Of a stretch of 64,000 nt of DNA, positions 2,523-56,395 are shown piece by piece. Position numbers and translations under genes: made by a program. Numbering within the stretch: position 1 is the first letter of the stretch; every line of letters begins with the position of its first letter. The notes below the pieces were generated by a model. That model was given only the letters and a program-made list of their open reading frames with translations, did not search any database and was not told the DNA's origin. Location: positions 960,001 through 1,024,000 of the forward strand of contig CM000434.1 of assembly GCA_000165345.1 (NCBI GenBank), given 5' to 3'.

Positions 2523-2814
2523 AGTCAATAAGTTCTCGTGATCACTATCAATCTACTTGAAGTTGTGAGAAACTAAGTTATTTTTAGATTTGCAAAGGTA
2601 ACAAACAATACACTAACAAGTTAATGATTAACATTTATATATAACTTCCATCTATTAATTGACTAATTATAGCTTATAATTGAAATTAATAATTATTAAT
2701 ACCTCCTTCTTTTTTCTTAAAGTTAAAAAATAATAATATTAAAAAGAAATAAGATTCACTTTTTTATCTTCTTCCAATGTTTTATTGGTTCTTCTGGAAT
2801 TCACTCATATTAAG

Positions 2815-3711
2815 CTAAATATTAAGCTTCAAAACTCCTCCTTTGCTTTGGACATTATTAACTCCAGAACCATCATCATCAAAAGTAGTTGTAATTAAAT
2901 CGACTTTTTCTTCATGTATTAAATTCATATCAACAGTATGATCATTAGCATCCCCCTCAGCATTTGCTAAACTAACCTTCTCTCCAGGTTTGAACGCTGG
3001 CATTCCCTTATAGGGACATCCAGAACATCTGAAAGCATCACCTAAGTAACAATTGCCACAACTTGAGCGAGCTGTACCTGTCTCAACTTTCTCCTGATAT
3101 ACCTTTCTTGCAGCTTCAACTCCAATTTCCTTCTCAAGATCAGCTCTTCCACAATTACAGTTGTTACAGGCTCTTTCTTTTGACTTACAACTTTCTTTTC
3201 CTTGTCCAAGAGGAACATAATTCTTGATATCTGGTACAGAACCCTCTAAGTCAATATCATCAACAAGTACTTTACCTTCTTCAGGTTTCCAACTGGGCTT
3301 TTCAGCTTTAATAACTATCTCAAAATCACTATCAGATGAATTTAATCCATCACCCTTCAATTTTTTTACCTTAATAAACCCAGAAAATAACAAATTCCTT
3401 TCAAAGGCTTTAACTTTATCAATAGAGTCTAGAGCCAATATATTCACTTTTAAAACTGATCCAAAATCCAACACCCCATAAAACTCTTTCAAAAATTCAA
3501 ATGTAAAGATTTCACCCAAAATTGATCCTGATGATAAATAAATGGATACAATTCTAAATTCTCCCTTCTTTACAATAGCTCTTAAATCAGATAAGGATGA
3601 AAACTTTCCAAATTTATCCTCTTCCTTCTTAATTCTATTCAGCTCTGACAAAAATACCTCACTCTCCTCTAATTTACTATCACTTTGATGAGTAATTATT
3701 AACTGAGTCAT
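2815..3711 (-). CDS. DRE2: Anamorsin/Dre2 (CIAPIN1-family Fe-S cluster assembly protein).
   Basis: The C-terminus carries the CIAPIN1 twin-cysteine motifs '[16 protein letters not shown]' and '[31 protein letters not shown]', which are diagnostic of anamorsin/Dre2. The gene starts at a true ATG at 3709-3711. Confidence 0.8.
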
Positions 3712-40457: not shown

Positions 40458-41828
40458 ATGAATAAACATAGAAATTTTTTAAGAAAGTTATGTTCTGGCC
40501 CGATATTATTATTAATAATTTTGAGCTTATCCAATAGTACTGAAGTGGATAAAGCTATTAATTTTAAAGAAAACTTACAATCAAAAGAATCAACATTTTC
40601 AACAGGGCTTAGAATACCAAATTATAATAATCATTCTGAAATTTGTAGATTATGTGGTTGTGACTCTACGAAGAATGTAAATGTAGAAGGTTTTAAATCT
40701 TTTACATGTAGTAACTGCAACAAATCCAAAATTCAAGAAGGAGATTGCATTTTGCAAGGAGCAATAAATGATTCAAACAATAACAAAACTGAACTAGTTC
40801 ATGGACTAGAAACTTCAGTTTTTGGAGATTATAGAAGTTTGTTCTTTGGGAAATCTGACTTTTTAACCAGTAGAAGCTATAGAAATAATCTATTGGCTCG
40901 TATTTTTGAACCAGAATTTACATGGGAAAATTTTTCACATGGAAGTATTAAAGATAATTGTAAAATATACAGAGATGAAAATGATGATTTTGAACATTTT
41001 AAGCTTAGTTTTACTTATACACTACATGGCGACCGAAATTGTACACGTCTTTTACTTCATTTTGTGAATAAACACACTGGAAGTACTCTATATAAGAATT
41101 TAAGTCCATTTAAAGAAATAGAAAGTGATTATGATTTAAATTCATTGATGGTTTTTAGGCATGATGATATCAAAGTTAGAGTAGATTCTCTTGAGAAGGT
41201 TAATCTTCACCAAGAATTCAATATCACTTCATACGACTCACCTCCCAAATTCCTATTTAGTTCTGAACAACAAGAATGGGTACCCGTTAGTTTACGGAAT
41301 CAAGAAATTATTGTTAATCCAAAAATTATTCATGAAAGGTTATTAATTATATTTCAGCTCATTAACTCCCAAAGTTCAACTCCAAGCTGCAAAATGGACA
41401 ATGTTAAAGTCGAAGTTGTTGTTCAATGTAAATCTGTAGCTTTCCCGCCAAACCCAAAATACAATAAGGATTTTGTTCAAGATAAACTTAAGAAAATGCA
41501 TTCTAAGTATGATGATAAAATTTTTAAGCTTTTCTTACAAAAATTTGAAGAAAAACTTATGCATGTTCTTGGCTCAATTCCTAATGCTCTACTCACTACA
41601 AATAGTAACAAGTTAATAACGAATACACCCTTGAGCAACTTTTCAATTCCTTGCAAAGAAGCTATTTATCTTGGCGATATTCCAAAGTTAATGACCAAAT
41701 TTAATTATACCTCTAAATTTAATGAACTTGCTAATTCTGGTTCCTATTCTACTTCAACACCAACTTTTGAAGATGTTGACGAAAATAAGCTTTTTAATGA
41801 CATCGAAGCTGCACTTAATACTAACTAA
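40458..41828 (+). CDS. Secreted cysteine-containing protein with a signal peptide. Unknown function, probably lineage-specific.
   Basis: Hydrophobic signal-like 'GPILLLIILSLSNS' near the N-terminus, many N-glycosylation-type NxS/T sites and several CxxC/CxC cysteines. E2F-like TTTCCCGCC at 40266..40277 and TTGGCGCCA at 40282..40290 lie upstream. Confidence 0.5.
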   Translation: MNKHRNFLRKLCSGPILLLIILSLSNSTEVDKAINFKENLQSKESTFSTGLRIPNYNNHSEICRLCGCDSTKNVNVEGFKSFTCSNCNKSKIQEGDCILQGAINDSNNNKTELVHGLETSVFGDYRSLFFGKSDFLTSRSYRNNLLARIFEPEFTWENFSHGSIKDNCKIYRDENDDFEHFKLSFTYTLHGDRNCTRLLLHFVNKHTGSTLYKNLSPFKEIESDYDLNSLMVFRHDDIKVRVDSLEKVNLHQEFNITSYDSPPKFLFSSEQQEWVPVSLRNQEIIVNPKIIHERLLIIFQLINSQSSTPSCKMDNVKVEVVVQCKSVAFPPNPKYNKDFVQDKLKKMHSKYDDKIFKLFLQKFEEKLMHVLGSIPNALLTTNSNKLITNTPLSNFSIPCKEAIYLGDIPKLMTKFNYTSKFNELANSGSYSTSTPTFEDVDENKLFNDIEAALNTN

Positions 41829-42284
41829 TCAAATCTATTCGTCTTAGATTTCTTTTATTATAATTCTAAACAAACAACAAACTAATATTTACATCTTCAA
41901 CTCTACATGCACTATTTAAATTTTCCCGCCTAAAATTGCTCGTATTTTTTAGAAGTTAGAAAAATTAACGCTTTAGTTTAATAATTAGGATCTACCATGT
42001 ATATCAATGAATTTCTTCTCTTCCATTCTGTGAAAACTCTTTTTTCCTCTTCATACGAGAATTGAAGTAATCCTTTGATAATTTATAAGGGAGGGTGAAA
42101 AGTTAGTTTTGGCGGTTAACATGGCCTAAGACACCCCTCTGGGCCTGTGAGTATAAGAAAGACCAGGAGGCCATTAATAATAAGAAAAGTGTAAAAAAGA
42201 AGATCAGTCCTTTATGGATATTAAGGATTGATAGAGTAGTGCTTGATCATCCTAAAGGAGGCTTGCGTTAAAAAAAAGGACCAA

Positions 42285-45200
42285 ATGGTTCGTAATGGTG
42301 ATCAAAGTCTTATAAACATATCATCTACAGACAAGTCTGATAAATGGGACTTGAAGCATAAAAATGAAGAAATTCCAACCAGAAAAGTGGTGGAGGAATC
42401 AAGTCTAGAATACTACGAGAGATCATCGCGCTCGGCCTCGCACTTTGGTAAGGTTTATAATGGACTATATCCAGTAGGTCCAAGATTACCAAGTTTCTCT
42501 TCATCCAATAAAAGAAGTAGGCTACAGAGTACATATAATGAGGATGAGTTCAGTTCCAGTTCAGCAAATAGTTCTGTTATAAATTCCGATGATAAAATGT
42601 ATATTGATTTTCCAATTCGAAATTTCTGGAAGATTGCAAAGACTCCTATAGACATGGAATCTCCCCAAATTGGGTATTGTCGAGGCTTTTATTATAGATT
42701 GTTAGTTCATCCCAGAGGAGGGAGTTGTAATGATTCTGAAAGCAGCTACTTGAGCGTGTTTTTGGAAGCACTTTACCATGAATCATATCCAGACGATTGG
42801 ATTTTTCCAAATGTTCGATTTCAACTTTCAGTTGTAAACTTTTTAGACCCCAAAGCAAATATCACGTCTTGGGCCCATTGGACATTTTCTCATGATGCAA
42901 TGAGTAGAGGATGGCATAAGATGGTTTCACATGTGAGACTCACTAGAGCTGCAGGTTTTGTTGATGACGAAGGAACCGTGTTAATTAGAGGTAGAGCTGA
43001 GCCTCCATTTCCGAGAATTTGGTCAAGATCTCCTAAATGTAGGCCATGGAGTATATGGGGTACCTTACCCTATAGAAATGCATCAGCATTGGCTCAGTAT
43101 AAGCCTTGTATTACCGGAACCCGCCAAGATCAGAACCAAGGCTGTTCTGATAAGCATGTTATTACAACAAATCTTTGTGCTTTTCATGAATTAGCAGAGA
43201 ATTCTAATAGAGGTCTTCTTTCTTGTAGAGCAGAATCACTATCTTCAGAAAGTTGTGGCATTTCTCAACATCAGTTAGAAGGCTCCTTATTAGTAGGGAG
43301 TACTCCTTTGTCAATTATGGATAGACTTTTATGGTCCAGTAGTAATTTGTTTGTTCCAACTTTAAGATCTCAGCTTAATGTGGACTTTGTTCCTGCATTT
43401 GTCCATTTGCTTTACCATATCAAAGAGTTTAGGAGGGCAATTTTCTCTTGGAACCCACGAATCCCTAAGAAATGTTCAACAAATCAAAATCCCAATTCTT
43501 CAGAAAGGTCAAAGAAGCATGATCCCAATCATTCTCCCGCCTCATTTATAGACCCCCAACAGCCACGTACATCCATTATTGAGGCTCTTCAGAAAACCTT
43601 TGCATATATGACTCTCTGGCCAATTGCCTATTCTGTCAAAAGATCTATCCGACATAGCTGGCAAGAAAGAATAGCCACAGATCCTTCTCTTGTGGACGAT
43701 TGGTGTTTCTCTAAATGTTGTAAATGTGGTGGTGAATTTGACTCTTATCCTAACAGTCCTGAAATGACTGACACTTCATCACTCCATACATCAAATAGCA
43801 GAAATGGCCGGCATTGTGCTTCCGATAAAAGTATTCCAACCCAGAGTTCTATTTTCAAAGAAAAGGAATGTCTCAGATGCAAATTACCTCCTGTTCCAGA
43901 TTGTTCTTGGATTATGAAAGCTTTATATATGAACGATTTACAAAGGATTGATGTTGCTGACCCTCTCATGCGCTTCCATTGCTTCATTTTTGGCGCCATT
44001 TATTTGGAGTCTGCACATGCAATTCTCCAGATTGCCGCGCATCACAGAAAGTCAATTCCACAGAATTTCAGGGGTTCAGAAAAGTTTGCCAATTTAGAGT
44101 CATCTGAAGGGAAGGATGAGTTTGAGAGATCCGAATTAACTGATGGTGAGTATAAAGAGTTTAGAGAGTCGGATGAAAGGAGTTTAGGATCACAAAGAAC
44201 TAGAGATCAGGAACAAAGTCGAGGCCAAGGCCGAGGTCAAGGTCAAAGCCAAAACCAAGATCAAGATCAAAACCAGTACTATGATCATGGACAAACACAA
44301 GGACGAGATATGAATATCTCAATCTCTTCTATTTTTGACTTAGAAGAGGATCTGAGAGTCCCAACAGAGTTTGATAATACTTGCAGAGTATTGTTTTCCA
44401 GTGTAGCTGAAGATGGAGGTGATTGCTTCTCTGACTACTCCACGTGCTGCCTTAGAGCTAAGCATATTCATTCAATCCCCAAAGCTATTGAGCATTATGC
44501 TCACAGATTTAAAAGATTCCCTGAAACACTTTTTATTTACTTCACTCCTCCAAAAAATGCCAAGAAGGGAGAGTTGTTTGACGTTCCTTTTAGGCTTGAA
44601 GCATCATTTTTATTGGAGAATTCCAATGTAAATGTAAATACAGGTATCGGAGTGGTTGATCAAGATTTTAAGGGTATAAAATCTGATAATCGTGGACAAA
44701 ACACTAATCAACAAGAGGATATTCAACCTCTTGTCACTGAACAATTCCAAGATGATGAAGTTATTGATGAAAGTACTCCAGACCTGAAAGGTAAAGTTAG
44801 AGGTAATAAAGAAGCAACAGGCTCTGAATCTGGTCAAAATACAACGAGCGTAGTTTTGGACAATAATGATTCTGCATTATGTGTTGAATCCAATGATGAA
44901 TACTCTTTAGAATACGTCTCAGAGGATGGATTTGATGAGAATCAGGACACCTCTATTCAATCTGATAGTCAGGACGATACAACAGGACATAAAAGTGATG
45001 TCAAATCTCCAAATTCTGAGAACTTCTTTGGATCTTCCAGCCAATATATGGAAAAATGGTACTCATTATATGGAGTGATCATTAAAGAAGGAGACGCTTC
45101 TGGAAGTAATTCTACAAGAAGTGTTCATCAACTTCTAATTAGACCTGAAGAAGATGGTCCATGGTTTAGAATTTGTGATGGTTTAGTTGAAAGACTTATA

Positions 45201-48200
45201 CCAAAGATTGAATTCACAGAGTGGAAATGTCATGGTGGATTCTTTTGTGCTGCTGCTGTATATATTGCTGAGGATTACATTGATTCAATTGCTGCAGGAG
45301 ACGTAATGGCTGATTGTGATATAAAGACTATTAACCCAAAGCTATATCAAGAGACTCTAGATCTTCTGGAAGTTTCTGAGGAAGAACTTCAGTATATCCC
45401 ATCTTGGGTATCTACACAAGTTAATACTTATGGTCCAAACAATGTACATTTGGAGATGCCTTCTTCAGAAGTTGATCATCTTGCAATGTGTGTAGATATT
45501 GCAAACGTTACTGTATGTGACTCAACAACATGTGTATTTGGACATCCTCTAATGGATGCTGGTTTATCAATTGATCCTTACTCTTTATGGATGCTTGTTG
45601 ATTATCGTTGGGGTTGGCCTTTAGTAAACAGCTACTTCCAACTCCAAGAACCTTTGGTTCAAGCTTTTTCAGCAGATCCTTCTGTTATACTTTCTGGGAG
45701 GACTATTCTCACTCCTTCAGCTCAAAAGCTACTCAATTCATTATCATTCAAATCTTTACGAGATTCTATACCAAAGTTTTGGAGCTTATTATTCGATATT
45801 ATGTTAGGACCAGATTTGGATTCTAAGGATCTTGATGCAATTCTACAAGTAGTTCCTCATCTTAGATCTCTATCTGCTAATATATTTCTTGAGATCCATA
45901 GGCTTTTGGAAGAATTTGGTATTTCTGAGGAATCTCAAGATCTTTTATTCTCCCAATCTGAGCTATACTCTGCTTTAGAACCTGATGTTAATCATTGTGA
46001 AATTAATAAAGATGATCTTCAAGATCAAGATCAAGATCAACAACATGATAAAGGCTGTCTAAAAGAGTATTTAAAGAATAACATTACAATCGAAGATAAA
46101 CTGGTACCTTATAATAAAGTAAAAATGATTTTATATCCTTCAATTCCTTCTCATCCTCCAAGCTTCCAACTAAATCAAAATGAAATCACTCCATCTTATA
46201 ATATTGCTCTAAACTTCATTAACAGGCTTCACATCCTTCTTTGGCCTCATCTTATACATTTTATCTATGAGCTTCTTCCTGTTGCAATTACTATCAGACT
46301 AAAAAGACTTCTTTTCAAGAGTAGTGACGACCTCTTATTTGATCCCAGACTTACTCCTGAAGATCTTTGTGCTAGATTCTTAACAGAATCCAAGTTTCTA
46401 TTAGAATCTAGCTGTTGTCCACTTAACTTGATTAGATTCTGTGATAACAAACAGCTTTTGAATGCTGCAATAAACCAGGTAGCAGCAGCTTTAGATATAC
46501 ATGGATCATCATATACAGCAGCTTCTTGTTCTTTATCTTGTCCTACTAATAGAATGATTGATAGATTTGCTTCAGAGCTTGGAAGTTCAAACTTTGTAGT
46601 CCCAATATTGGTATATATTACTCAAATATTACTTTCTGGAACATTATATAGAGTATCATCAAAATTACTTCCACCTGAAGCTTTGTATACTTGGCCTACA
46701 AGTTCTTCAAATCAAGAATCTTTGTCTTTAACAGGTATCGGGAATTTAATTAATCATAAAGATTCCACGCCTTCAAAACAGTCAACTGGATCAAAAAAGA
46801 GGAATTCTTCAAATAAGTCTTCTTCTGGTACAGCAAGTTCTAATGGATTAATTGTACCAAATCCACTCTCAGAAGCAATTCAACATCTTCAAGTGAATCA
46901 GGTATCATTCAGTCATATTGATCCTTATGTATTTATTCCTCTTCATACATTCCACGCTGTATCAACTCCTTTATTGGTAAACATCATCTTTGAAAATGAT
47001 CTTATAGGGAGGAAGTCTTTTGCATCTGAGAGTTTTCTATGTGCTTCCAGAGTCCTTCATGTAAATAGACTTGCAACAGTAAGACATTTATACTCAGCAA
47101 TAAGAAAAGTTCTATATCAACAATTTCTAGATACAAAGATTTCTAATAGTTTAGATACTCCAGATGTAACACCATTAGATACTCCTCAATCTAAGAATAA
47201 TAATGAACATAATACAATAGGAGGAAGACAACAATCTTCTGGTCATACTCATACTAATAAGAAGAATACAATATCAAATATTCCGATACCTATAGATTGT
47301 GAAGGTTTTGATTTAAGTTGGATACCAAGTAATCCATTGGATGTTTTCTGTCTTTACTCTTTAAGACCAGATACTGATCCAACAAGAAGAGGAAGACTTA
47401 AATATACTTATATGCAACCAAATGACTTTCTAGAGAATCATTATTATGGACCTCACAAATCTAATTATGTTACGTATTGTGATGTTGCAATTTTAATTTG
47501 TGTACCTCCAGAATTGAAGCTCCAAATACCTCCAGGATCTCAGAATTCGGATCATATAACAAAAAATTCTTCATCCCAAATGAATACAGTATCGGTATCT
47601 GGAGTAGGGGTACCGGGAAAAGCAGCAAGCTTAATGGGGTCAATATCAGCAGGAATTGGAGAATCTGATTCAGATTGTGCATGTTTGTATACTTGTCCAA
47701 GTCATATAGCTCATTCACCAGTATGTCAGAGTTCAAGGATGATAGAAAAGACTGTTCCAAAAATCGTCTCACCTTTATTCAAGGCTAAACTAATAGATCC
47801 TTTATGGTCAAGTACTAAATTCCCAATGAATGATGATTCAGTTGCTCCTCTTTTGATTTTTAAATGGTTTGATCAGACAACTTTGGATATTACACTGTTA
47901 AGTGCATCAATATGTGAAGCAAGAAAGTCTTTAAGAGATTGTATTGTTTCTTGGGTATTCCCTAGAGCAAGAAGAATGGGATTAATGCCTCAAAATTCTT
48001 CTAAAGAGACTCCAAATGCAGATGATTATACAGTTTTAGAGGAATGTCATATTAGAGTATGTCAAAATGTAAGAAGATGGACTTCATCAATAAAGAAAAT
48101 CAATAGAACAACAGGAGATGTATTTATTGTTCAAAAAAGATACAATAATTTGGGATCATCCCAACCTCTGATTTCTGATTGTTCATTTATATCACCCTTT

Positions 48201-51200
48201 ATATCAGCAGCATTATCATCTAATTCATATTCGGGTATTGTAGATGACTTTCCGCCTTCTCTTTCAAGGGATGAGTTATTAGCTATAATTACTAGTATGA
48301 ATACTAAGAAGATTAACCAGCTTGGGATCTTTAATACTCCAATTAAAGGTATATCAGGAAGCAATTCTCCAACAGTATTAGATCTAAAAAAGAATAGTTT
48401 GGATAGAACTTGGCCGATATCTGCATCTCCTATGGGAGGAGATCCTAAATTAACCTTTTCACAATTCTTTGATATTCTTAAGCATGGGGACGATTCTGGG
48501 GACTTTTTAGCATCCCAAATTGAGGATTTGGATATCTATTCATATCAGAATAGTAGTTGTAAGATTTCTATGGAAGATATTTCTTCATTAAAATCCGGTA
48601 CCGATCAAGGAAATTCATTGAATCAGGCAGAAAAAGGTAATCATTCTGTAACTGGAGTTAGTAATGAAACAACTTCAATAGATTTGAAGTCAGTTACAAC
48701 ATTTACTAATACAAATACAGTACAGATTTTAAATGCAAACAACTCTAATCAAAATGATTTATCTGCAATTTCTAGTAACTCTTTAATTGGAGGAACAGGA
48801 GTGGCGGGAACTTCTGGAGGTGGATCTAAGAAGAAGAAAAAAGCTTCCAAGAAGCTTCCTGGAATTCCATCACTACAGAAATCAAGCATTGTGAAGGCTT
48901 TAAATGCTCAGAGAAGACTAGAATCTCAATCTACAAGACTTGTAGATAATGATTCAGCTGATTTATCAGGATTGAGAGGGAGAGATCAAGGTCAAGATCA
49001 TGATCAAGATCTTGATCATGATCGGAGTCAGGGTCAGAATCAGAATCAGGATCAGGGTCAGGGTCAGGGTCAAGCCCAGGATCATGATCAGGATCAGGAT
49101 CAACATAGTAATCAGTATAATGAAGAGGAATCCAAACAGGATAATAAGGGAAATGAAAAACGCAAAGAAGGTCATAAAGAGAAGGATGTTGAAAGAAGTG
49201 ATATTAAAGTAAACAATTTATCTACAGCTTTGAAAAAGGATGCAAACTCTCCTGAATCTATGGATAAAGCTGGCTTGGAGGCTAAGCCTGATTCATCTTC
49301 TCCTTCTTCCTCCTTTTCTTATGGAACTGTATCTCTTAGACCAGAAAAGCTTCAGAAAGTTCCTGATGAACTTTTTGAAATCGCTCTTGAAAGCTTTTCT
49401 GGAGACTCATTCAGTGTCTCCAGCTTAGTTGGCCGTTTATTGGAGCGTGTTATATGCAGATTTTCTGAGATCTCAAATAGAAAAAAGGAAGACTCCTCAT
49501 CTCATATTTCTGAAACCTTTTCTGATTCTAATAATAGATCCGAATTCCTATTATGGATGAATGGATTAAATGATCTCGTATGTAACTTATCTTTGATTGG
49601 AGGTAGCAAAAAGATTGACCAAACTCTTATTCAAAGAGAAATCATACAACTCCTTAGAAGACTTCTCTCAACTGAGACAAGTTCTCAACAACTTTCTAGT
49701 GTTGCATCTGAAAGTCTTTCATCTATAATTAAATATTTAGAGGATGGAAATCTTGAGCCTTGTTTTAAATCAATAATTTACAATATTCCACAAGTTGGAT
49801 CAGGATCAAGATCATTAATATCGGTACCTGGTTTATTAAAAACGATACCCAAATATGGTAATAATTTTAATAAAGAATCATTTAATAATTATTATAATAA
49901 TATGTATAATATTTTAGTACCAGTACAACAAAGATCTGCTATTTTGTTCACAATATTATTAATTAAAAGTTTAACAATACTGTCTCCAAGTTCAATAATA
50001 GAGATGCATCTTGGATTACTTCCTAAGACGGATTATATAAGATCTAATTCATTAATTAAATCAACAGGTTATAAATCAATTAAGTCGTTTGTTTTGTTAG
50101 CATACTTTTTGAATGTTTTTGGAGTTAAAGATGCAATGGATGTTATTATTTCAATACAAGGAGTTAAAGGATTTGAGAATCTATTGATTAGGATGGCATC
50201 CTATACTATAGGCTTGAGACAATATGCAACTAGTAACTTTATTATAGAGAATATTGAAAAGCTTCATGATCATCATCCATCTTTAGATTGGGTATCGTCT
50301 TTAAGAATTACTGATAAGTTAGCAATCAGTGAGGAAGTTCTTAAGAAGACTTTGGAGACTATTTGTGATCATTTTTCTACAAAGAGTAATTCAGCTTTTG
50401 CTCAGAATAAGAAGACTTTGGATTTAATACAAAATGTTGAAGGAATTGTCAGATTCTCAGATATCAATGATTTTGCATATGAACAGGCTCAATTATTAGA
50501 AATGAGAAAAGTTGGAAAAGATTCTCCTCAAATATTAGTTAATAATGATGACTTATGTATAATACTTAAACCTCCTTTCTGGTATTGTCCAATAGAAGGT
50601 ACAGGGATGGATGAGGATGAACAAGATGAGGAGGATAAACAAGATGAACAAGAAGAAAGTGTAGAATATGAAGAAGAATTAGAATACAAAGAAGATGAAA
50701 CTGATGGTGATAAAATAGAAAATCAAAGAAATGATGACAAGAAAAGAAGAAAGGTAAAAAAGAAGCTTGATCATGATAATATCCAAGATGAAAACAATAA
50801 GGATGAGAAAACAGGTATAAGAAAAGATCTTAAGAATAAAGTATCGAGTATTATAATTAAAGAAGAAGATAATGATTCTGAAATTGAAGTTGAAAAAGAT
50901 AATAATAATAGTAATACTGATGAATTTGAGGAGATTCTAAATAGTGGAAGAATGGAAAGTATCTTGAACTTTTTGAAATTAAGATGTAAAGGAATAGGCT
51001 TAGATTTAAGAGGTAACGAGAAAATGATTAAAAGAATTGGATTAAAACTTGGAGTTGAGATTGGAGGTCCAATATTAATTTTAAAGAATGAAGATATGGA
51101 GAAATACTATAATAAGAATGAGATCTTGAATCAAATTCATTGTCAGTATATATTTTTATGCCATGGACAGATTCAGAATTCTTCTGATAGAAATGTCTCT

Positions 51201-53702
51201 TTATCAAATATTGTCTCAAATGCTTCAAATAGAATATTCTCAAAATGTCTTTCATCAGATGGAGGTGATTCTATTGCAAAATATAATGTTTGTGAACATA
51301 TCAAGTTTAAGAATTATAATAAAGGTTCTCCATCCACATTTTCTTTATGTACATGTATTTCAAAACCCGGTAACGTAAATAAGATTAGAGCTTATATGCA
51401 TCAAATTGGTCATACAATTGTTGGTGATTCTAAACATCTTGGTCAGAAACAACTAAGTTTGGATAGAAGATATTTTCCTAATATATTCTTTTATTGTACT
51501 CATTTGGAGATTCCTTTAATGCAAAATAATAATGTTAAAAAAGATGGTGATCATGAAATAGAGGAAAAGCGTGATGGGAATACAATAATATTGGATAGTA
51601 ATGCAATAATAAATAAAGAAAGTATTAAAGTTATGGCTCCAGTTTCAAGAGATATAATGGAACTTCTTGAGAATGATTTTGAAATTACAGAAAAGTTCTC
51701 AGATATGTACTTTTGTCATTTTTATAAGACTAATGTTGAACTTGAAAAGTTGGATAAAGCTGAAAAGACTTCACAAGTTACCCCTTCTGATGCTGATATA
51801 GAAACTAGAGTTGGGGATGATTTAGTAGAGTATAATGAAATTAAGGCTACAAATATGAAATCTGGTAATGTTATTATTAATGATGAAAAAGATAAAAGAA
51901 AATGTTCAGAAAGTACAGAAAATGATAATTTTGAGCCTCTTAGTATATCAAATACTCTGATAGCTTCTCTTCCTGGACTTGGATTTGGACTTACACCATT
52001 TCTTGGTATGCCTAATTCTCAATATGCTGCAAGTGTGAATTGTTCTCAAGATGAGAAATCATTGGAACGTAAACAAAACCAGCGATTATCATTATCTTCT
52101 TCTTCCTCCTCTTCTTCTTCCTCCTCTTCTTCCTCCTCTTCTTCTTCCTCCTCTTCTTCCTCCTCTTCCTCCTCTACTTCTTCTTCAGTTCATACTATGA
52201 TACCGCCAGATTCGGCTAGCTTATCTTCTCCAACTCCGGCATCAACTTTACATGCAAAGACAAATGCTGGAGTATTTACATCATTTGGATTTGGAAGGAA
52301 TTTTCTAACATCTTCTGTTGATAATTCAACAAACTCTGCAAGCATTGGAGGTGGGATTGGAAGAGTTGGAGGAGGAATTGGAAATATTAGAGGTGGAGGT
52401 ATATCATCTACTGGTGGTATGACAGTTAATAATACTGGTTTAAGGCATTTGGTATCTCAACACAACCAATCCGGAGGTGGAAATGGAGATGGAAGTAGTA
52501 TCATTAACAGCAATAGTAACAATAGTGGTAATAACAATAATAGTAGTTCTCTTCCTATAAAGACTCATCCAAGCTTGGTTTCTTGTCTTACAGAATTAAA
52601 CTCAAAATCAGATGGATCTGCACTGGGAATTGGACTAAGTACGAGCAATTTGGTGCCTGGAGGAGGAAATATCTTCCATCAACAAAACTTCATGCAGGGA
52701 ATAATGACAGGAGGAACAGGAGGAATAGGATTGGGAGGTATAGCAGGAAGTTTAGCAGGTGGAGCTGCAGGTGGGGTAACAGGTGGGGTTGCAGGCGGAG
52801 TGGCAGGTGGAGCTGCAGGAGGTTTAACAGGAGGTGGAGTAGCAGGAGTAGGAGTTTCACCATCACCAATTTTCCAACATCACGGGAACAATACAGCTGG
52901 AATTGTAAATAGTGGAAGATATGGAAGCTTAACAATGAACAGTGGTATTAGAATGGATGCAGGCACTGGTACGTTAGGTAATAATGCAGTACAAATGCAT
53001 CATCAACAGCATCAACAACAACAACAAAGTTCAGGGGCAAAACAGGGCTGGAATACTCAAGATCTGCTTCAAAATCCAAGATGGACTTCATCTGAAGTTA
53101 ATAACGATGGTTTTGGAGGTGGAGTCAATAGAATTGTAGGAGGAGGAGGAGGAGTCTCTGAAGAAATGAATGTAAATCAATGGAATAATGGAATTGGCGG
53201 GAATTTCAGAGCTTTAAACTCAAGAGGAATTAATAATTCTGGAGGATTAAACCTGTCAACAGTTAACTTGGTTACAGGAATAGGTATTGGCGGCAACATC
53301 GGTATCAATAGTAATATTGGTATTGGCAGTAATATTGGTAATGGAAATAGTACCACTGGATTAGGAAATATAAATGTAACAGAAGGTACCGGTATAACAA
53401 TTGGATCAGGAGTAACAATGGGACCAGGAGTAACAATAGGACCAGGAGTAACAATAGGACCAGGTTTATGGGGACAACATGCTGCCCAACAGCAACCCTC
53501 AATCATTGTTGATCCTCCGTCTCAGGGGAAACATTCGTCAATGCAACAACAAATTGGAGGAATTCCCAATATTGTCTCAAATCTACATGCCAAAAACATA
53601 CAAGACGGAATTAGTTCCCAAAGATTTGATACTTTTCCTCATGAAAGGGGTGAAACTACTGAGCATTTGGAATCTAGACAAGGAAAGAAATCTCCATTTT
53701 AA
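42285..53702 (+). CDS. Giant multidomain protein of about 3,800 aa. An N-terminal MATH/TRAF-like domain and a USP7-like ubiquitin-hydrolase-fold domain occupy about the first 1,000 aa. A long, largely low-complexity middle region follows. An RluA-family pseudouridine-synthase-like domain sits at nt 50547..51520, interrupted by an acidic insertion. The tail is poly-Ser and G-rich.
   Basis: MATH-like: 'FPIRNFWKIAKTPIDMESPQIGYCRGFYYRLLVHPRGG...SYLSVFLEA...VRFQLSVVNF'. USP-like: 'NLCAFHELAEN' (possible Cys box), 'FVHLLYHIKEFRRAIFSW', 'IIEALQKTFAYM' and a His-box-like 'YSLYGVIIKEGD...SVHQLLIRPEEDGPWFRICDGLVERL'. RluA-like: 'DDLCIILKPPFWYCPIEG' (compare LLVVNKPAGLxVHP), 'ILNQIHCQYIFLCHGQI' (compare K.YLALV.G) and 'SLCTCISKPGNVNKIRAYMHQIGHTIVGDSKHLG' (compare [33 protein letters not shown]). 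The whole frame is open with no stop under the standard code. The track's start at 42243 is a TTG; the first ATG is at 42285. Confidence 0.6.
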   Translation: MVRNGDQSLINISSTDKSDKWDLKHKNEEIPTRKVVEESSLEYYERSSRSASHFGKVYNGLYPVGPRLPSFSSSNKRSRLQSTYNEDEFSSSSANSSVINSDDKMYIDFPIRNFWKIAKTPIDMESPQIGYCRGFYYRLLVHPRGGSCNDSESSYLSVFLEALYHESYPDDWIFPNVRFQLSVVNFLDPKANITSWAHWTFSHDAMSRGWHKMVSHVRLTRAAGFVDDEGTVLIRGRAEPPFPRIWSRSPKCRPWSIWGTLPYRNASALAQYKPCITGTRQDQNQGCSDKHVITTNLCAFHELAENSNRGLLSCRAESLSSESCGISQHQLEGSLLVGSTPLSIMDRLLWSSSNLFVPTLRSQLNVDFVPAFVHLLYHIKEFRRAIFSWNPRIPKKCSTNQNPNSSERSKKHDPNHSPASFIDPQQPRTSIIEALQKTFAYMTLWPIAYSVKRSIRHSWQERIATDPSLVDDWCFSKCCKCGGEFDSYPNSPEMTDTSSLHTSNSRNGRHCASDKSIPTQSSIFKEKECLRCKLPPVPDCSWIMKALYMNDLQRIDVADPLMRFHCFIFGAIYLESAHAILQIAAHHRKSIPQNFRGSEKFANLESSEGKDEFERSELTDGEYKEFRESDERSLGSQRTRDQEQSRGQGRGQGQSQNQDQDQNQYYDHGQTQGRDMNISISSIFDLEEDLRVPTEFDNTCRVLFSSVAEDGGDCFSDYSTCCLRAKHIHSIPKAIEHYAHRFKRFPETLFIYFTPPKNAKKGELFDVPFRLEASFLLENSNVNVNTGIGVVDQDFKGIKSDNRGQNTNQQEDIQPLVTEQFQDDEVIDESTPDLKGKVRGNKEATGSESGQNTTSVVLDNNDSALCVESNDEYSLEYVSEDGFDENQDTSIQSDSQDDTTGHKSDVKSPNSENFFGSSSQYMEKWYSLYGVIIKEGDASGSNSTRSVHQLLIRPEEDGPWFRICDGLVERLIPKIEFTEWKCHGGFFCAAAVYIAEDYIDSIAAGDVMADCDIKTINPKLYQETLDLLEVSEEELQYIPSWVSTQVNTYGPNNVHLEMPSSEVDHLAMCVDIANVTVCDSTTCVFGHPLMDAGLSIDPYSLWMLVDYRWGWPLVNSYFQLQEPLVQAFSADPSVILSGRTILTPSAQKLLNSLSFKSLRDSIPKFWSLLFDIMLGPDLDSKDLDAILQVVPHLRSLSANIFLEIHRLLEEFGISEESQDLLFSQSELYSALEPDVNHCEINKDDLQDQDQDQQHDKGCLKEYLKNNITIEDKLVPYNKVKMILYPSIPSHPPSFQLNQNEITPSYNIALNFINRLHILLWPHLIHFIYELLPVAITIRLKRLLFKSSDDLLFDPRLTPEDLCARFLTESKFLLESSCCPLNLIRFCDNKQLLNAAINQVAAALDIHGSSYTAASCSLSCPTNRMIDRFASELGSSNFVVPILVYITQILLSGTLYRVSSKLLPPEALYTWPTSSSNQESLSLTGIGNLINHKDSTPSKQSTGSKKRNSSNKSSSGTASSNGLIVPNPLSEAIQHLQVNQVSFSHIDPYVFIPLHTFHAVSTPLLVNIIFENDLIGRKSFASESFLCASRVLHVNRLATVRHLYSAIRKVLYQQFLDTKISNSLDTPDVTPLDTPQSKNNNEHNTIGGRQQSSGHTHTNKKNTISNIPIPIDCEGFDLSWIPSNPLDVFCLYSLRPDTDPTRRGRLKYTYMQPNDFLENHYYGPHKSNYVTYCDVAILICVPPELKLQIPPGSQNSDHITKNSSSQMNTVSVSGVGVPGKAASLMGSISAGIGESDSDCACLYTCPSHIAHSPVCQSSRMIEKTVPKIVSPLFKAKLIDPLWSSTKFPMNDDSVAPLLIFKWFDQTTLDITLLSASICEARKSLRDCIVSWVFPRARRMGLMPQNSSKETPNADDYTVLEECHIRVCQNVRRWTSSIKKINRTTGDVFIVQKRYNNLGSSQPLISDCSFISPFISAALSSNSYSGIVDDFPPSLSRDELLAIITSMNTKKINQLGIFNTPIKGISGSNSPTVLDLKKNSLDRTWPISASPMGGDPKLTFSQFFDILKHGDDSGDFLASQIEDLDIYSYQNSSCKISMEDISSLKSGTDQGNSLNQAEKGNHSVTGVSNETTSIDLKSVTTFTNTNTVQILNANNSNQNDLSAISSNSLIGGTGVAGTSGGGSKKKKKASKKLPGIPSLQKSSIVKALNAQRRLESQSTRLVDNDSADLSGLRGRDQGQDHDQDLDHDRSQGQNQNQDQGQGQGQAQDHDQDQDQHSNQYNEEESKQDNKGNEKRKEGHKEKDVERSDIKVNNLSTALKKDANSPESMDKAGLEAKPDSSSPSSSFSYGTVSLRPEKLQKVPDELFEIALESFSGDSFSVSSLVGRLLERVICRFSEISNRKKEDSSSHISETFSDSNNRSEFLLWMNGLNDLVCNLSLIGGSKKIDQTLIQREIIQLLRRLLSTETSSQQLSSVASESLSSIIKYLEDGNLEPCFKSIIYNIPQVGSGSRSLISVPGLLKTIPKYGNNFNKESFNNYYNNMYNILVPVQQRSAILFTILLIKSLTILSPSSIIEMHLGLLPKTDYIRSNSLIKSTGYKSIKSFVLLAYFLNVFGVKDAMDVIISIQGVKGFENLLIRMASYTIGLRQYATSNFIIENIEKLHDHHPSLDWVSSLRITDKLAISEEVLKKTLETICDHFSTKSNSAFAQNKKTLDLIQNVEGIVRFSDINDFAYEQAQLLEMRKVGKDSPQILVNNDDLCIILKPPFWYCPIEGTGMDEDEQDEEDKQDEQEESVEYEEELEYKEDETDGDKIENQRNDDKKRRKVKKKLDHDNIQDENNKDEKTGIRKDLKNKVSSIIIKEEDNDSEIEVEKDNNNSNTDEFEEILNSGRMESILNFLKLRCKGIGLDLRGNEKMIKRIGLKLGVEIGGPILILKNEDMEKYYNKNEILNQIHCQYIFLCHGQIQNSSDRNVSLSNIVSNASNRIFSKCLSSDGGDSIAKYNVCEHIKFKNYNKGSPSTFSLCTCISKPGNVNKIRAYMHQIGHTIVGDSKHLGQKQLSLDRRYFPNIFFYCTHLEIPLMQNNNVKKDGDHEIEEKRDGNTIILDSNAIINKESIKVMAPVSRDIMELLENDFEITEKFSDMYFCHFYKTNVELEKLDKAEKTSQVTPSDADIETRVGDDLVEYNEIKATNMKSGNVIINDEKDKRKCSESTENDNFEPLSISNTLIASLPGLGFGLTPFLGMPNSQYAASVNCSQDEKSLERKQNQRLSLSSSSSSSSSSSSSSSSSSSSSSSSSSSTSSSVHTMIPPDSASLSSPTPASTLHAKTNAGVFTSFGFGRNFLTSSVDNSTNSASIGGGIGRVGGGIGNIRGGGISSTGGMTVNNTGLRHLVSQHNQSGGGNGDGSSIINSNSNNSGNNNNSSSLPIKTHPSLVSCLTELNSKSDGSALGIGLSTSNLVPGGGNIFHQQNFMQGIMTGGTGGIGLGGIAGSLAGGAAGGVTGGVAGGVAGGAAGGLTGGGVAGVGVSPSPIFQHHGNNTAGIVNSGRYGSLTMNSGIRMDAGTGTLGNNAVQMHHQQHQQQQQSSGAKQGWNTQDLLQNPRWTSSEVNNDGFGGGVNRIVGGGGGVSEEMNVNQWNNGIGGNFRALNSRGINNSGGLNLSTVNLVTGIGIGGNIGINSNIGIGSNIGNGNSTTGLGNINVTEGTGITIGSGVTMGPGVTIGPGVTIGPGLWGQHAAQQQPSIIVDPPSQGKHSSMQQQIGGIPNIVSNLHAKNIQDGISSQRFDTFPHERGETTEHLESRQGKKSPF
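48983..49105 (+). repeat. Coding hexanucleotide repeat (GATCAG/GGTCAG)n encoding a (DQ/GQ)n tract. A shorter copy lies at 44215..44278 in the same gene.
   Basis: Repeating 'gatcaaggtcaagatcatgatcaagat...cagggtcagggtcagggtcaa' units are visible in the sequence. Confidence 0.7.
52094..52190 (+). repeat. Coding (TCY)n microsatellite encoding a poly-serine run of about 32 residues.
   Basis: The run 'tcttcttcctcctcttcttcttcc...' is visible in the sequence and translates to S x32 in the giant ORF. Confidence 0.8.
53404..53466 (+). repeat. Three and a half tandem copies of an 18-nt unit (ggaccaggagtaacaata) encoding GPGVTI repeats.
   Basis: Near-identical consecutive 18-mers are visible in the sequence. 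Confidence 0.8.
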
Positions 53703-54220: not shown

Positions 54221-56395
54221 ATGATTCCGAATGGATCAAAACTTGAGCTTGGAACTTTAGTATTAGGTTCTGAAACAGTAAGAAAAGGATGGAATGCATT
54301 TTCAACTTTAAATAATGCAATAGATGGAGTTAGAAAAGTGGCAAATGATGTAGTAGGATATAATAATTCAACAACAATAGGAAATGAGAATTATAAAGGA
54401 GAATTGGAAAATAATAAAATAGTAAGTATAATAGAGAAAATAGAAGTAGGACAGGTATATGGAAGATTAAAAAATGATTTAAAATTAATACAAATATTTG
54501 AAAGAGAAACAAAATCAATGGGAACTTTAGAAATTATTTCAATTAATAATAATTTAGACTTTTCATATTTAAATATAAGATGGAGACGAAAAATGGGTGA
54601 AAAATTAATTGATATACAAGGTAAAGATTCAAGCCTAAAATATAACTTAACAGCTGATGATGTAGGAACAATTATTATTATAGAAATATATCCAAAAGGA
54701 GAAGCAAATGATCCTTTAAATATTACATATTGTGAATTAGGACCTATAGAAATAGATGATACAACAAAGATATCTTTATCAAAATCTTTAAAAACAGGTC
54801 TTATTAGATTCCCTGTAGAAATTATAAAAGATGAATTTGAAAGCTTAATAAATCCAGAAAATTCTTCAAAAGAATTAAAAAATGATGAAGATTCAATAAT
54901 GACAAAAGATATTTTGGTAGTAACAAATGATGATGTTAAAGTAATTAAAAATGGAATGACAAGTTCAAATTCAAACTTTGAAAAGAAAATTGTATGGTCA
55001 GCAAAATACTTTGGTGGTAATATACATATTCAATTAAATCATCAATCATCATCTTGTCAAGAATTCACTCTTTGTTCTGGATACGATATTCATAAACAAA
55101 AGATATCAATTAAAACAACAAGTAGAAATGCTAGAGATATTGCAGCTTTAACAATTAGATGTTTAAATATTAGACACACAATATCATTAGAAGCTATAAT
55201 TGGAGGTGGAGTTTCCTGGATCCCAAAAAACTCAACAGTAAATGATTCAGATAATATGGAAATTGAAGAAAATAGAAAATTAAATATTTTTGCTTATATA
55301 GGACGTCTAGAAGATGAAATTGCAAATTTAGAGAATAACAAGGAAAAACTGAACGAAGATAAAAAACTTCTTCAAACTGAAAAAGCTATTTTAGAAAATG
55401 AATTAGCTGAGACAATTTCAGCTTATCAAGATATAATTTCTCAATATCAACAAGAAAAAGATACTAAAACCAATACTAACAAACAAACCAAAGAATTTAA
55501 CATAGAATTTGGGCTTGAAAAGAACACAGGAATTAAACAATCCAACAATAGTCCAAACAAAAAGTCGATTCAATCAAATTCAAATAATTCTCATAAATCT
55601 ACCTTACTACATGGTTACAGTGGTACCTATCCTATAAATAATTCAAAACAAGATGGATCTAGCAATTCAGAAAATAATAATAACTCACAGAAAAATGAAT
55701 CCATTCAACAAAATTCCACTGAAATTAATAAAATAATTGAAGAAAATGCTTCTCTTAAAGAGTCCATTTCTCAACTTAATAAAAAATTTGAAAATGAAAT
55801 TGGCGCCAAAGAGTCAATGGAGCGCATGCATGCAGAAATTGAAGAATTGCGCGGGAGATTGGAAAGGTCGGAAAAAGAAAAGGAAGACTATAAAAGATTA
55901 AATGAAAAATTAGATGGCGAAATCTTTGTTAAAAATCAAGAATTAGAGAGTATTAAGTTAGGACAATGTTTAAATTCGACTAGAAATATAGAAAAGATAC
56001 AGCAATTGGAAGATCGCATATTGGATCTTCAGAGTCAGAATTCTGAAAAACAACAAGCTATTCAAACTTTATCAACAGAAAAATCAAAGCTTCTAAAAGA
56101 CTTTTCATCATTAAAATTAGACTTTGATAAGCTTAAGGAGCAACATAATCAACTAAATAAGAGATACATAAGCTTAAATCTTGAGAATTCAAGAATTCAT
56201 GATCAAGAAAAATCATCAAAATTTGACAATGAACTCATGAATTCTGACTCTCAAAACAAAAATGACCAAGCTGTTGATATTACAAAACTAAAAAGTGAGC
56301 TTGAAGATTATAAGAAAACTAATTGTGAGCTTAACCAGACTATAACTCAACTTAAAACAAGAATACGAAGGTTAGCAATGATCAATTCTACTTAG
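54221..56395 (+). CDS. Hypothetical 724-aa protein: a globular N-terminal roughly 330 aa followed by a long coiled coil.
   Basis: ATG at 54221. The C-terminal half is heptad-rich (E/K/L/Q/N) with leucine-zipper-like spacing. Upstream motifs: CATGCATGCA at 53850..53859 and TTTTGGCGCCAC at 53865..53876. Confidence 0.5.
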   Translation: MIPNGSKLELGTLVLGSETVRKGWNAFSTLNNAIDGVRKVANDVVGYNNSTTIGNENYKGELENNKIVSIIEKIEVGQVYGRLKNDLKLIQIFERETKSMGTLEIISINNNLDFSYLNIRWRRKMGEKLIDIQGKDSSLKYNLTADDVGTIIIIEIYPKGEANDPLNITYCELGPIEIDDTTKISLSKSLKTGLIRFPVEIIKDEFESLINPENSSKELKNDEDSIMTKDILVVTNDDVKVIKNGMTSSNSNFEKKIVWSAKYFGGNIHIQLNHQSSSCQEFTLCSGYDIHKQKISIKTTSRNARDIAALTIRCLNIRHTISLEAIIGGGVSWIPKNSTVNDSDNMEIEENRKLNIFAYIGRLEDEIANLENNKEKLNEDKKLLQTEKAILENELAETISAYQDIISQYQQEKDTKTNTNKQTKEFNIEFGLEKNTGIKQSNNSPNKKSIQSNSNNSHKSTLLHGYSGTYPINNSKQDGSSNSENNNNSQKNESIQQNSTEINKIIEENASLKESISQLNKKFENEIGAKESMERMHAEIEELRGRLERSEKEKEDYKRLNEKLDGEIFVKNQELESIKLGQCLNSTRNIEKIQQLEDRILDLQSQNSEKQQAIQTLSTEKSKLLKDFSSLKLDFDKLKEQHNQLNKRYISLNLENSRIHDQEKSSKFDNELMNSDSQNKNDQAVDITKLKSELEDYKKTNCELNQTITQLKTRIRRLAMINST

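Follow-up and report, generated by a model that had tools for sequence, protein, structure and literature searches.

A giant Cryptosporidium protein with a predicted pseudo-USP7 module and a degenerate RluA-like pseudouridine synthase domain

The stretch analysed here (the window) comprises 64,000 nucleotides of contig CM000434.1 of the assembly GCA_000165345.1, i.e. positions 960,001 to 1,024,000 of the forward strand. It carries an 11.4-kb gene whose product, judged by its sequence, is the Cryptosporidium ortholog of a giant apicomplexan protein, in which a MATH domain and a module resembling the ubiquitin-specific protease (USP) USP7 are joined to a module of the RluA family of pseudouridine synthases. 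The aligned nucleophile position of the protease module is occupied by Asp in nearly the whole family, and the aligned catalytic Asp of the synthase module is a Gly in the window protein. We consider it probable that both centres are dead in this species and that this conserved protein, a pseudo-USP7 module with an RluA domain attached, acts as a non-catalytic scaffold. The fusion itself is already known, because it is written into public product names. The modestly new point, and the value of the analysis, is the residue-level reading of two pseudoenzymes in one chain, together with the pattern of lineages in which the modules occur. The coordinates of all features are collected in Table 1.

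An earlier note on this DNA had proposed that the gene encodes a single polypeptide, which is borne out by the unbroken frame and by colinear orthologs that hold the same modules. The open reading frame (ORF) runs without interruption over 42243..53702 on the + strand. The length of 3,819 codons given in that note is counted from an upstream TTG (3819 aa), and the start that it gave, 42285, is indeed the first ATG, from which there are 3,805 codons. Stops are expected about every 12-14 codons at the composition of the ORF, so that a chance frame of 11.4 kb in A+T-rich DNA is excluded, and apart from this ORF there is none of at least 150 aa overlapping it on either strand. The peptides quoted in the earlier note were all located in the translation (TNLCAFHELAE at aa 295, SVHQ at 946, WFRICDG at 960, ILKPPFWYCPIEG at 2760, GLDLRG at 2905, LKLGVEIGG at 2920, YIFLCHG at 2955 and IRAYMHQIGHTIVGD at 3034).

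The domains proposed for this polypeptide could be recovered by profile searches in part directly and in part by way of the orthologs. When the whole window protein and ten segments of it were compared with Pfam, nothing except MATH was found (PF22486 MATH_2, 42 bits against a cutoff of 32, E 1.4e-10, above the gathering score), i.e. there was no match to UCH or to PseudoU_synth_2, either with the whole protein or in pieces, and none to USP7_ICP0_bdg. Profiles built from orthologs did identify the latter three families. A phmmer search of PDB with the whole protein and with the MATH segment gave nothing useful.

The USP fold was recognised in the orthologs at the Pfam level and in the family at the level of profile comparison. 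Five of the eight orthologous segments compared match UCH, with E values down to 1.2e-9 and, for Blabericola, a score of 34.1 bits against a cutoff of 23.9. An hhalign comparison of a 14-ortholog profile with a profile of USP7 and two other USPs gave 97.4% probability and an E value of 8.9e-12 over 283 columns, which span residues 8-343 of the 347-residue catalytic domain of USP7 (the sequence used is identical to PDB 6m1k). With a profile of Cryptosporidium sequences only, the comparison with the USPs gave 61% and E 8e-5, and the register was unchanged. Significance in hhalign was reached only after further orthologs and the three-sequence USP profile were added: the profile of the USP region (alignment A2) gave a weak match to USP7 alone (10% probability, His box only), and in PDB it found only a spurious de novo protein. 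A hidden Markov model (HMM) of the family was also run against 1.84 billion representative proteins and returned 41. The identifiable ones are apicomplexan or chromerid relatives, several are unnamed fragments, and the sole non-orthologs are two bona fide USPs, one USP47-like (UCH 198 bits) and one with UCH and DUSP domains. On these alignments, a USP (peptidase C19) fold is present from the Cys box to the His box.

It is at the catalytic columns of this fold that the family departs from active proteases; as the earlier note had recommended, the aligned Cys, His and Asp positions were inspected, and none of the three is conserved. The equivalent of the Cys box is 'LNVDFVPAFVHLLYHIKEFRRAI', in which 'LNV-D367-FVPAFVH' aligns with 'GAT-C-YMNSLLQ', and every alignment, by HMM as well as by hhalign, places Asp367 in the column of the catalytic Cys (Cys223 of USP7). 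Of the 14 orthologs, 12 share the Asp in this column, and the two exceptions are B. duncani with His and Porospora with Tyr. Since the nucleophile is replaced by Asp across nearly the whole family, the N-terminal module would be a pseudo-deubiquitinase. The His box lies where the earlier note had put it, as the hhalign register confirms; Val947 falls in the column of USP7 His464 and Cys964 in that of Asp481. In other words, where an active USP has Cys, His and Asp or Asn, the window protein has Asp367 and, in a sequence-based register, Val947 and Cys964. Among the orthologs the His464 column varies (V/L/S/G/F/A), and so does the Asp481 column (C/G/S/I/E).

The peptide 'TNLCAFHELAE', for which a role as the Cys box had been suggested, was rejected as a candidate because it lies within an insertion that occurs only in Cryptosporidium. 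Two segments within the USP-like module deserve mention. One of its inserts holds a cluster of Cys residues, 'CCKCGG ... ECLRCK' (43800-44030, aa ~505-580), which is kept in Cryptosporidium and of which Toxoplasma has a parallel, 'CCCRCK ... CLCCD'. The cluster may bind zinc, away from the usual position of the USP 'fingers'. The low-complexity tract 'QGQGRGQGQSQNQDQDQ' (aa ~640-680), similar to the D/Q/G-rich segment encoded at 48983-49103, is poorly conserved among the species.

Downstream of the USP fold the resemblance to USP7 continues. Of nine aligned orthologs, five match the family PF12436 USP7_ICP0_bdg, with E values down to 3.2e-8; Selenidium P0035 scores 27.7 bits where the cutoff is 27. 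The position of the counterpart in the window protein was mapped by BLAST colinearity; a profile of this middle region (A3) found nothing in PDB. The combination of MATH, USP fold and USP7_ICP0_bdg in the orthologs suggests that a diverged paralog of USP7 makes up the N-terminal ~2,000 residues.

The presence of an RluA-type module further down the chain, also claimed in the earlier note, is supported by three approaches that agree with each other. A family profile of aa 2721-3140 found RluC in PDB with E 2.7e-16, followed by RluD, RPUSD1 and RluA. A Cryptosporidium-only profile aligned with bacterial RluD-like proteins over 239 columns (hhalign, 98.3%, E 1.2e-14). Finally, of the structure predictions that the earlier note had called for, the AlphaFold2 (AF2) model of this region resembles the RluA family, as all of the top 15 Foldseek matches are RluA-family synthases (E down to 8e-6). 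We conclude from these profiles and from the model that aa 2745-3135 are predicted to adopt an RluA-family fold.

The recognised active site of pseudouridine synthases comprises the catalytic Asp with its basic partner and an aromatic residue (PMC3973310). The catalytic stretch reads HR[TIL]-D-[LK][ED]TSG in Toxoplasma, Besnoitia, Selenidium, Gregarina and bacterial RluD-like proteins, and LKL-G2923-VEIGG in the window protein, so that the suspicion that the Gly of 'LKLGVEIGG' stands at the position of the catalytic Asp proved right. The basic and the aromatic residue are retained (the Arg of 'NKIR' and the Tyr of 'CQY'). Among the six Cryptosporidium sequences examined, the HR, the TSG and the Lys of the KxY motif are gone from all, and the catalytic column holds Gly in five (the window protein included) and Asp in C. 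muris. All six retain the Arg of motif III and GHxIVGD, and also the Tyr, except that two species have Phe in its place. The C. muris ortholog P0005 reads 'TFD-DEISG' at aa ~2440, opposite window codon 51051-51053, with the Asp kept and the HR lost. The loss of HR in all six and the persistence of Asp in C. muris suggest that the active site is decaying stepwise within Cryptosporidium.

The RluA-like module is split, as had been noticed, by an acidic insertion of about 110 aa (aa 2773-2888: 116 residues, 44 of them Asp or Glu and 16 Lys), for which the predicted local distance difference test (pLDDT) score is below 50. Besides the window protein, only C. hominis and P0002 have it; the three other Cryptosporidium orthologs do not. 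The Asp of 'GLDLRG', which had been offered as a fallback for the catalytic Asp, was discarded, as the next Cryptosporidium species has 'GIGLGRG' at this place.

Orthologs were found over a wide range of apicomplexans, and no entry of the protein collection searched is identical to the window protein. C. hominis P0001 is 96% identical over the full length, P0002 is 76% identical, and the other Cryptosporidium orthologs go down to about 53%, which places the window in Cryptosporidium, near C. parvum and C. hominis; distant colinear relatives are found in Toxoplasma (6,535 aa), Cystoisospora, Gregarina, Blabericola and Selenidium. Six Cryptosporidium sequences have the full fusion, as do Toxoplasma, Hammondia, Besnoitia, the archigregarine Selenidium and Gregarina. 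For the last two, all modules lie on one transcript, and the transcriptome ORF of Selenidium carries the mark 'complete'. The fusion, whose retention by orthologs the earlier note had proposed to check, is thus kept in coccidia, gregarines and Cryptosporidium; the piroplasms are without the RluA part. Their orthologs are about 2,500-2,800 aa long and keep the MATH, USP-like and USP7-UBL (ubiquitin-like) regions, and the RluA profile did not match those of Theileria equi, Babesia bigemina, B. duncani and T. parva (P0034, P0036, P0037 and P0039), nor the chromerid relative from Vitrella (P0056). By this pattern, the synthase part seems to have been lost from the fusion in the piroplasm lineage. 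The identifiable matches in the search of 1.84 billion proteins were relatives from apicomplexans and chromerids, apart from the two ordinary USPs, so that the fusion seems to be restricted to Apicomplexa.

In GenBank, the product name of several Cryptosporidium orthologs is 'large having a MATH plus UBC hydrolase plus type I pseurousyn plus hexapeptide'. For the Toxoplasma, Hammondia and C. felis entries, which come with precomputed MATH and PF00849 assignments, it is 'RNA pseudouridine synthase superfamily protein', while those from Babesia and C. hominis go under 'MATH and LRR domain-containing protein'. The statement of the earlier note that the architecture is not a described one does not stand, since the product names already spell it out and since the largest P. 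vivax protein has been described as having a pseudouridylate-synthase domain and a TRAF-like region (PMC10993292). Searches of the literature by the wording of the Cryptosporidium product names, and for MATH combined with pseudouridine synthase in Toxoplasma, did not turn up a study devoted to the protein.

No Plasmodium ortholog was returned by the search of 1.84 billion proteins or by the searches with alignments A1 and A5, which gave a few fragments or bacterial RluD-like proteins. PFE0570w and PF3D7_0511500 are the older and the newer identifier of one Plasmodium gene, which, going by its name and by the literature, is a putative member of the MATH/USP7-like/RluA-like family. With a piggyBac insertion in PFE0570w, which is annotated as 'RNA pseudouridylate synthase', growth in the blood stage was attenuated by 57% (PMC2952599). 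PF3D7_0511500, annotated as 'RNA pseudouridylate synthase, putative', appears in a gametocyte-conversion screen (PMC10269797).

Constraint within Cryptosporidium was gauged, region by region, from the identity of the window protein to its orthologs in that genus (Table 1). The MATH domain, the His-box block and the RluA core are all more conserved than the acidic insert and the C-terminal tail, which suggests that both 'dead' folds are under purifying selection. The N-terminal module is under stronger constraint than the RluA-like one, which fits its being the sole part retained in piroplasms.

Taken together, these observations suggest the following scheme. The MATH/pseudo-USP7 module would probably serve as an adaptor that binds peptides, ubiquitin or other partners. 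In coccidia and gregarines the RluA domain looks catalytically competent by its sequence (HRxD, KxY and RTHQIR are there), whereas in Cryptosporidium it has lost HR, TSG and the Lys of KxY and, in the window species, the catalytic Asp as well. There the protein would act as a non-catalytic scaffold, whose conserved MATH/pseudo-USP7 part may recruit protein partners and whose conserved RluA fold would offer at most a surface for binding RNA or protein. A fuller evolutionary version of this reading can be put forward only tentatively, as something we hold a little short of an even chance. According to it, the whole apicomplexan family is an ancient line of pseudo-deubiquitinases, USP7 paralogs in which the nucleophile became Asp before gregarines, coccidia and Cryptosporidium split, and which served, fused to RluA, as a non-catalytic adaptor targeting RNA pseudouridylation; in most Cryptosporidium species the synthase would have become a pseudoenzyme too, the role left there would be pure scaffolding or RNA binding, and the 'double-dead' fusion would be under selection as such.

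Several points weigh against the reading of the window protein as a scaffold built from a pseudo-USP7 and a dead RluA domain. The UCH, PseudoU_synth_2 and USP7_ICP0_bdg assignments come from ortholog profiles, since Pfam finds none of them on the window protein alone. A specific affinity of the MATH domain to that of USP7 is unsupported because the MATH family profile reached no solved MATH domain in PDB at E <= 1. The AF2 model of the USP region (alignment A4, 9 sequences) has a mean pLDDT of 39 and is unusable, and a Foldseek search with it gave no significant match (best E 0.58), even if many of the weak ones are USPs. Owing to the failure of this model the His register is a purely sequence-based one, and His948 is just one residue off the aligned catalytic His column. 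The model of the RluA-like region is itself moderate (mean pLDDT 51.8, core 70-80, template modelling scores of 0.35-0.49). Finally, the loss of synthase activity may not be genus-wide because C. muris keeps the Asp of the catalytic column.

The best surviving alternative, which we nevertheless regard as unlikely, is that the RluA-like module of Cryptosporidium is a decaying, functionless remnant, i.e. that MATH/pseudo-USP7 is the essential part and the synthase is being lost as it was in the piroplasms. The Theileria and Babesia orthologs, which have kept the MATH, USP-like and UBL regions without a match to the RluA profile, speak for this alternative, and the degenerate active site, the large disordered insert within the RluA domain and the conservation of its core (42-84%), lower than that of MATH (90-99%) and of the His-box block (81-96%), point in the same direction. 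Yet the core stays well above its own insert (2-33%) and the tail (13-61%), and motif III is near-invariant over five Cryptosporidium species, both of which argue for ongoing constraint.

It is considerably less probable that the protein is a genuine bifunctional enzyme, or that one module or the other still works by means of non-canonical residues, such as His948 with another nucleophile in the USP fold or Glu2925 or another acid in the synthase. His948 does adjoin the aligned His column in a register drawn from sequence, and the synthase has a conserved Glu in VEIGG along with its active-site Arg, its Tyr and the Asp of GD. However, no conserved Cys is found at or near the nucleophile column (Asp in 12, His in 1 and Tyr in 1), and the Asp of 'GLDLRG' is not conserved. 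Moreover, active members also have an acid at the +2 position (DLETSG, DKDTSG), hence Glu2925 is no substitute for the catalytic Asp. That the ORF is an artefact or comprises two or more genes, e.g. a USP7-like gene followed by a separate pseudouridine synthase gene, is scarcely credible: the linker of about 700 aa that precedes the RluA-like module (aa 2050-2740) is poorly conserved, but the frame is unbroken over 11.4 kb of A+T-rich DNA, gene models show the same colinear order in five other Cryptosporidium sequences and in Toxoplasma, Besnoitia and Hammondia, and single transcriptome ORFs cover it in Selenidium and Gregarina.

The scaffold reading can be placed beside a number of known systems. 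The annotated apicomplexan orthologs share the gene family and the domain order with the window protein; the coccidian and gregarine members differ in keeping HRxD where the window protein has Gly, and the piroplasm members in having no RluA module. With USP7/HAUSP, which is made up of MATH, a USP domain and five UBLs, the window protein shares the N-terminal MATH domain and a USP fold over nearly the whole catalytic domain, and its orthologs share the USP7_ICP0_bdg match. Unlike USP7, it has Asp for Cys223, Val for His464 and Cys for Asp481, it contains several long inserts, and the module is joined to about 1,800 further residues that include the RluA domain. Similarly, it resembles RluA, RluC, RluD and RPUSD1-4 in profile and in fold, and in having kept the active-site Arg, the Tyr, GHxxVGD and motif I (KP.F). 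It differs from the RluA family in the replacement of Asp by Gly, in the loss of HR/TSG/K and in the ~110-aa acidic insert between motifs I and II, and also in that the domain is embedded in a protein of 3,805 aa.

Dead USP folds have been met in RNA-related proteins before. USP39/Sad1, part of the tri-snRNP, is a dead USP fold within the RNA-processing machinery; in the present analysis a USP39 chain (3jcr_V) came up only among the non-significant fold matches of the USP-region model. In Pan2 (USP52) a pseudo-UCH domain is combined with a DEDD exonuclease, and UCH and Exo together make up a single rigid unit (PMC7116106). Pan2 thus provides a precedent for the architecture of the window protein, as a dead USP fold joined to an RNA enzyme. 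The partner there is an exonuclease and not a pseudouridine synthase, however, and the N-terminal context is WD40 instead of MATH; moreover, the two modules of the window protein are ~1,700 residues apart, which does not suggest that they pack together. If the family does work through dead enzyme folds, it would be a natural pseudoenzyme scaffold that links the architecture of the ubiquitin system to RNA modification, much as the earlier note had surmised, and Cryptosporidium, in which both centres look dead, and Toxoplasma, in which the synthase looks intact, would make a natural pair for comparison.

Table 1. Features of the giant gene in window coordinates, with the identity of the window protein to other Cryptosporidium orthologs where calculated (aa, amino acids; CDS, coding sequence)
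Feature	Residues (aa)	Position	Strand	Basis	Identity
Complete CDS, first ATG to stop, 3,805 codons		42285..53702	+	ORF listing and translation; orthology	
MATH/TRAF-like domain	110-229	42612..42971	+	Pfam PF22486 MATH_2	0.90-0.99 (highest in protein)
Cryptosporidium-specific insertion with 'TNLCAFHELAE'	268-345	43086..43319	+	Gapped in Toxoplasma, Cystoisospora and gregarine orthologs	
USP-fold module, long low-complexity inserts, predicted catalytically dead	355-1035	43347..45389	+	Ortholog profiles	
Codon GAC, column of USP catalytic Cys (USP7 Cys223)	Asp367	43383..43385	+	HMM alignments to two USPs, hhalign to USP7	
His-box equivalent	Val947, His948, Cys964	45123..45176	+	hhalign register and column table	0.81-0.96 (His-box block)
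Putative counterpart of USP7 C-terminal UBL/ICP0-binding domain	~1560-1975	46962..48209	+	PF12436 in orthologs, BLAST colinearity	0.56-0.88 (UBL-like region)
RluA-family pseudouridine-synthase-like module	2745-3135	50517..51689	+	PDB profile, hhalign, Foldseek	0.42-0.84 (RluA core)
Acidic/lysine-rich insertion between motif I (KPPFW) and NSGRMES/motif II	~2773-2880	50601..50924	+	Ortholog alignment	0.02-0.33
Codon GGA, column of RluA-family catalytic Asp (HRxD)	Gly2923	51051..51053	+	Profile alignments, hmmalign table	
Motif III 'GNVNKIRAYMHQIGHTIVGD', counterpart of GRTHQIRVH..GHP.VGD, active-site Arg and GD Asp kept		51369..51428	+	hmmalign table	
Low-complexity C-terminal tail: poly-Ser, Gly-rich AGGV repeats, six-residue 'VTIGPG' repeats		51882..53699	+	Tandem-repeat analysis	0.13-0.61

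The gene is flanked on the same strand by two ORFs, 40458-41828 (456 aa) and 54221-56395 (724 aa), at distances of ~450-520 bp. Neither has a Pfam match at E <= 0.001, hence the genomic neighbourhood gives no clue to the function. The G+C content is 0.29-0.39 along the ORF and 0.24-0.31 in the flanks; it rises over the conserved parts, with 0.37-0.39 at 42-46 kb and 52-54 kb against 0.24-0.31 in the surroundings.

The 'hexapeptide' of the public product name would imply a hexapeptide-repeat (left-handed beta-helix) protein, yet the tail (aa 3141-3805) matched nothing in Pfam at E <= 1 beyond noise, and no hexapeptide family in particular. Its repeats are found at 52095-52186 (a run of ~30 Ser codons), 52743-52849 (AGGV-type, Gly-rich) and 53395-53464 (3.9 copies of an 18-nt unit encoding 'VTIGPG'). 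Upstream of the RluA-like module, hexanucleotide repeats of the GATCAG type (48983-49103) encode a low-complexity segment rich in D, Q and G, which is poorly conserved among the species.

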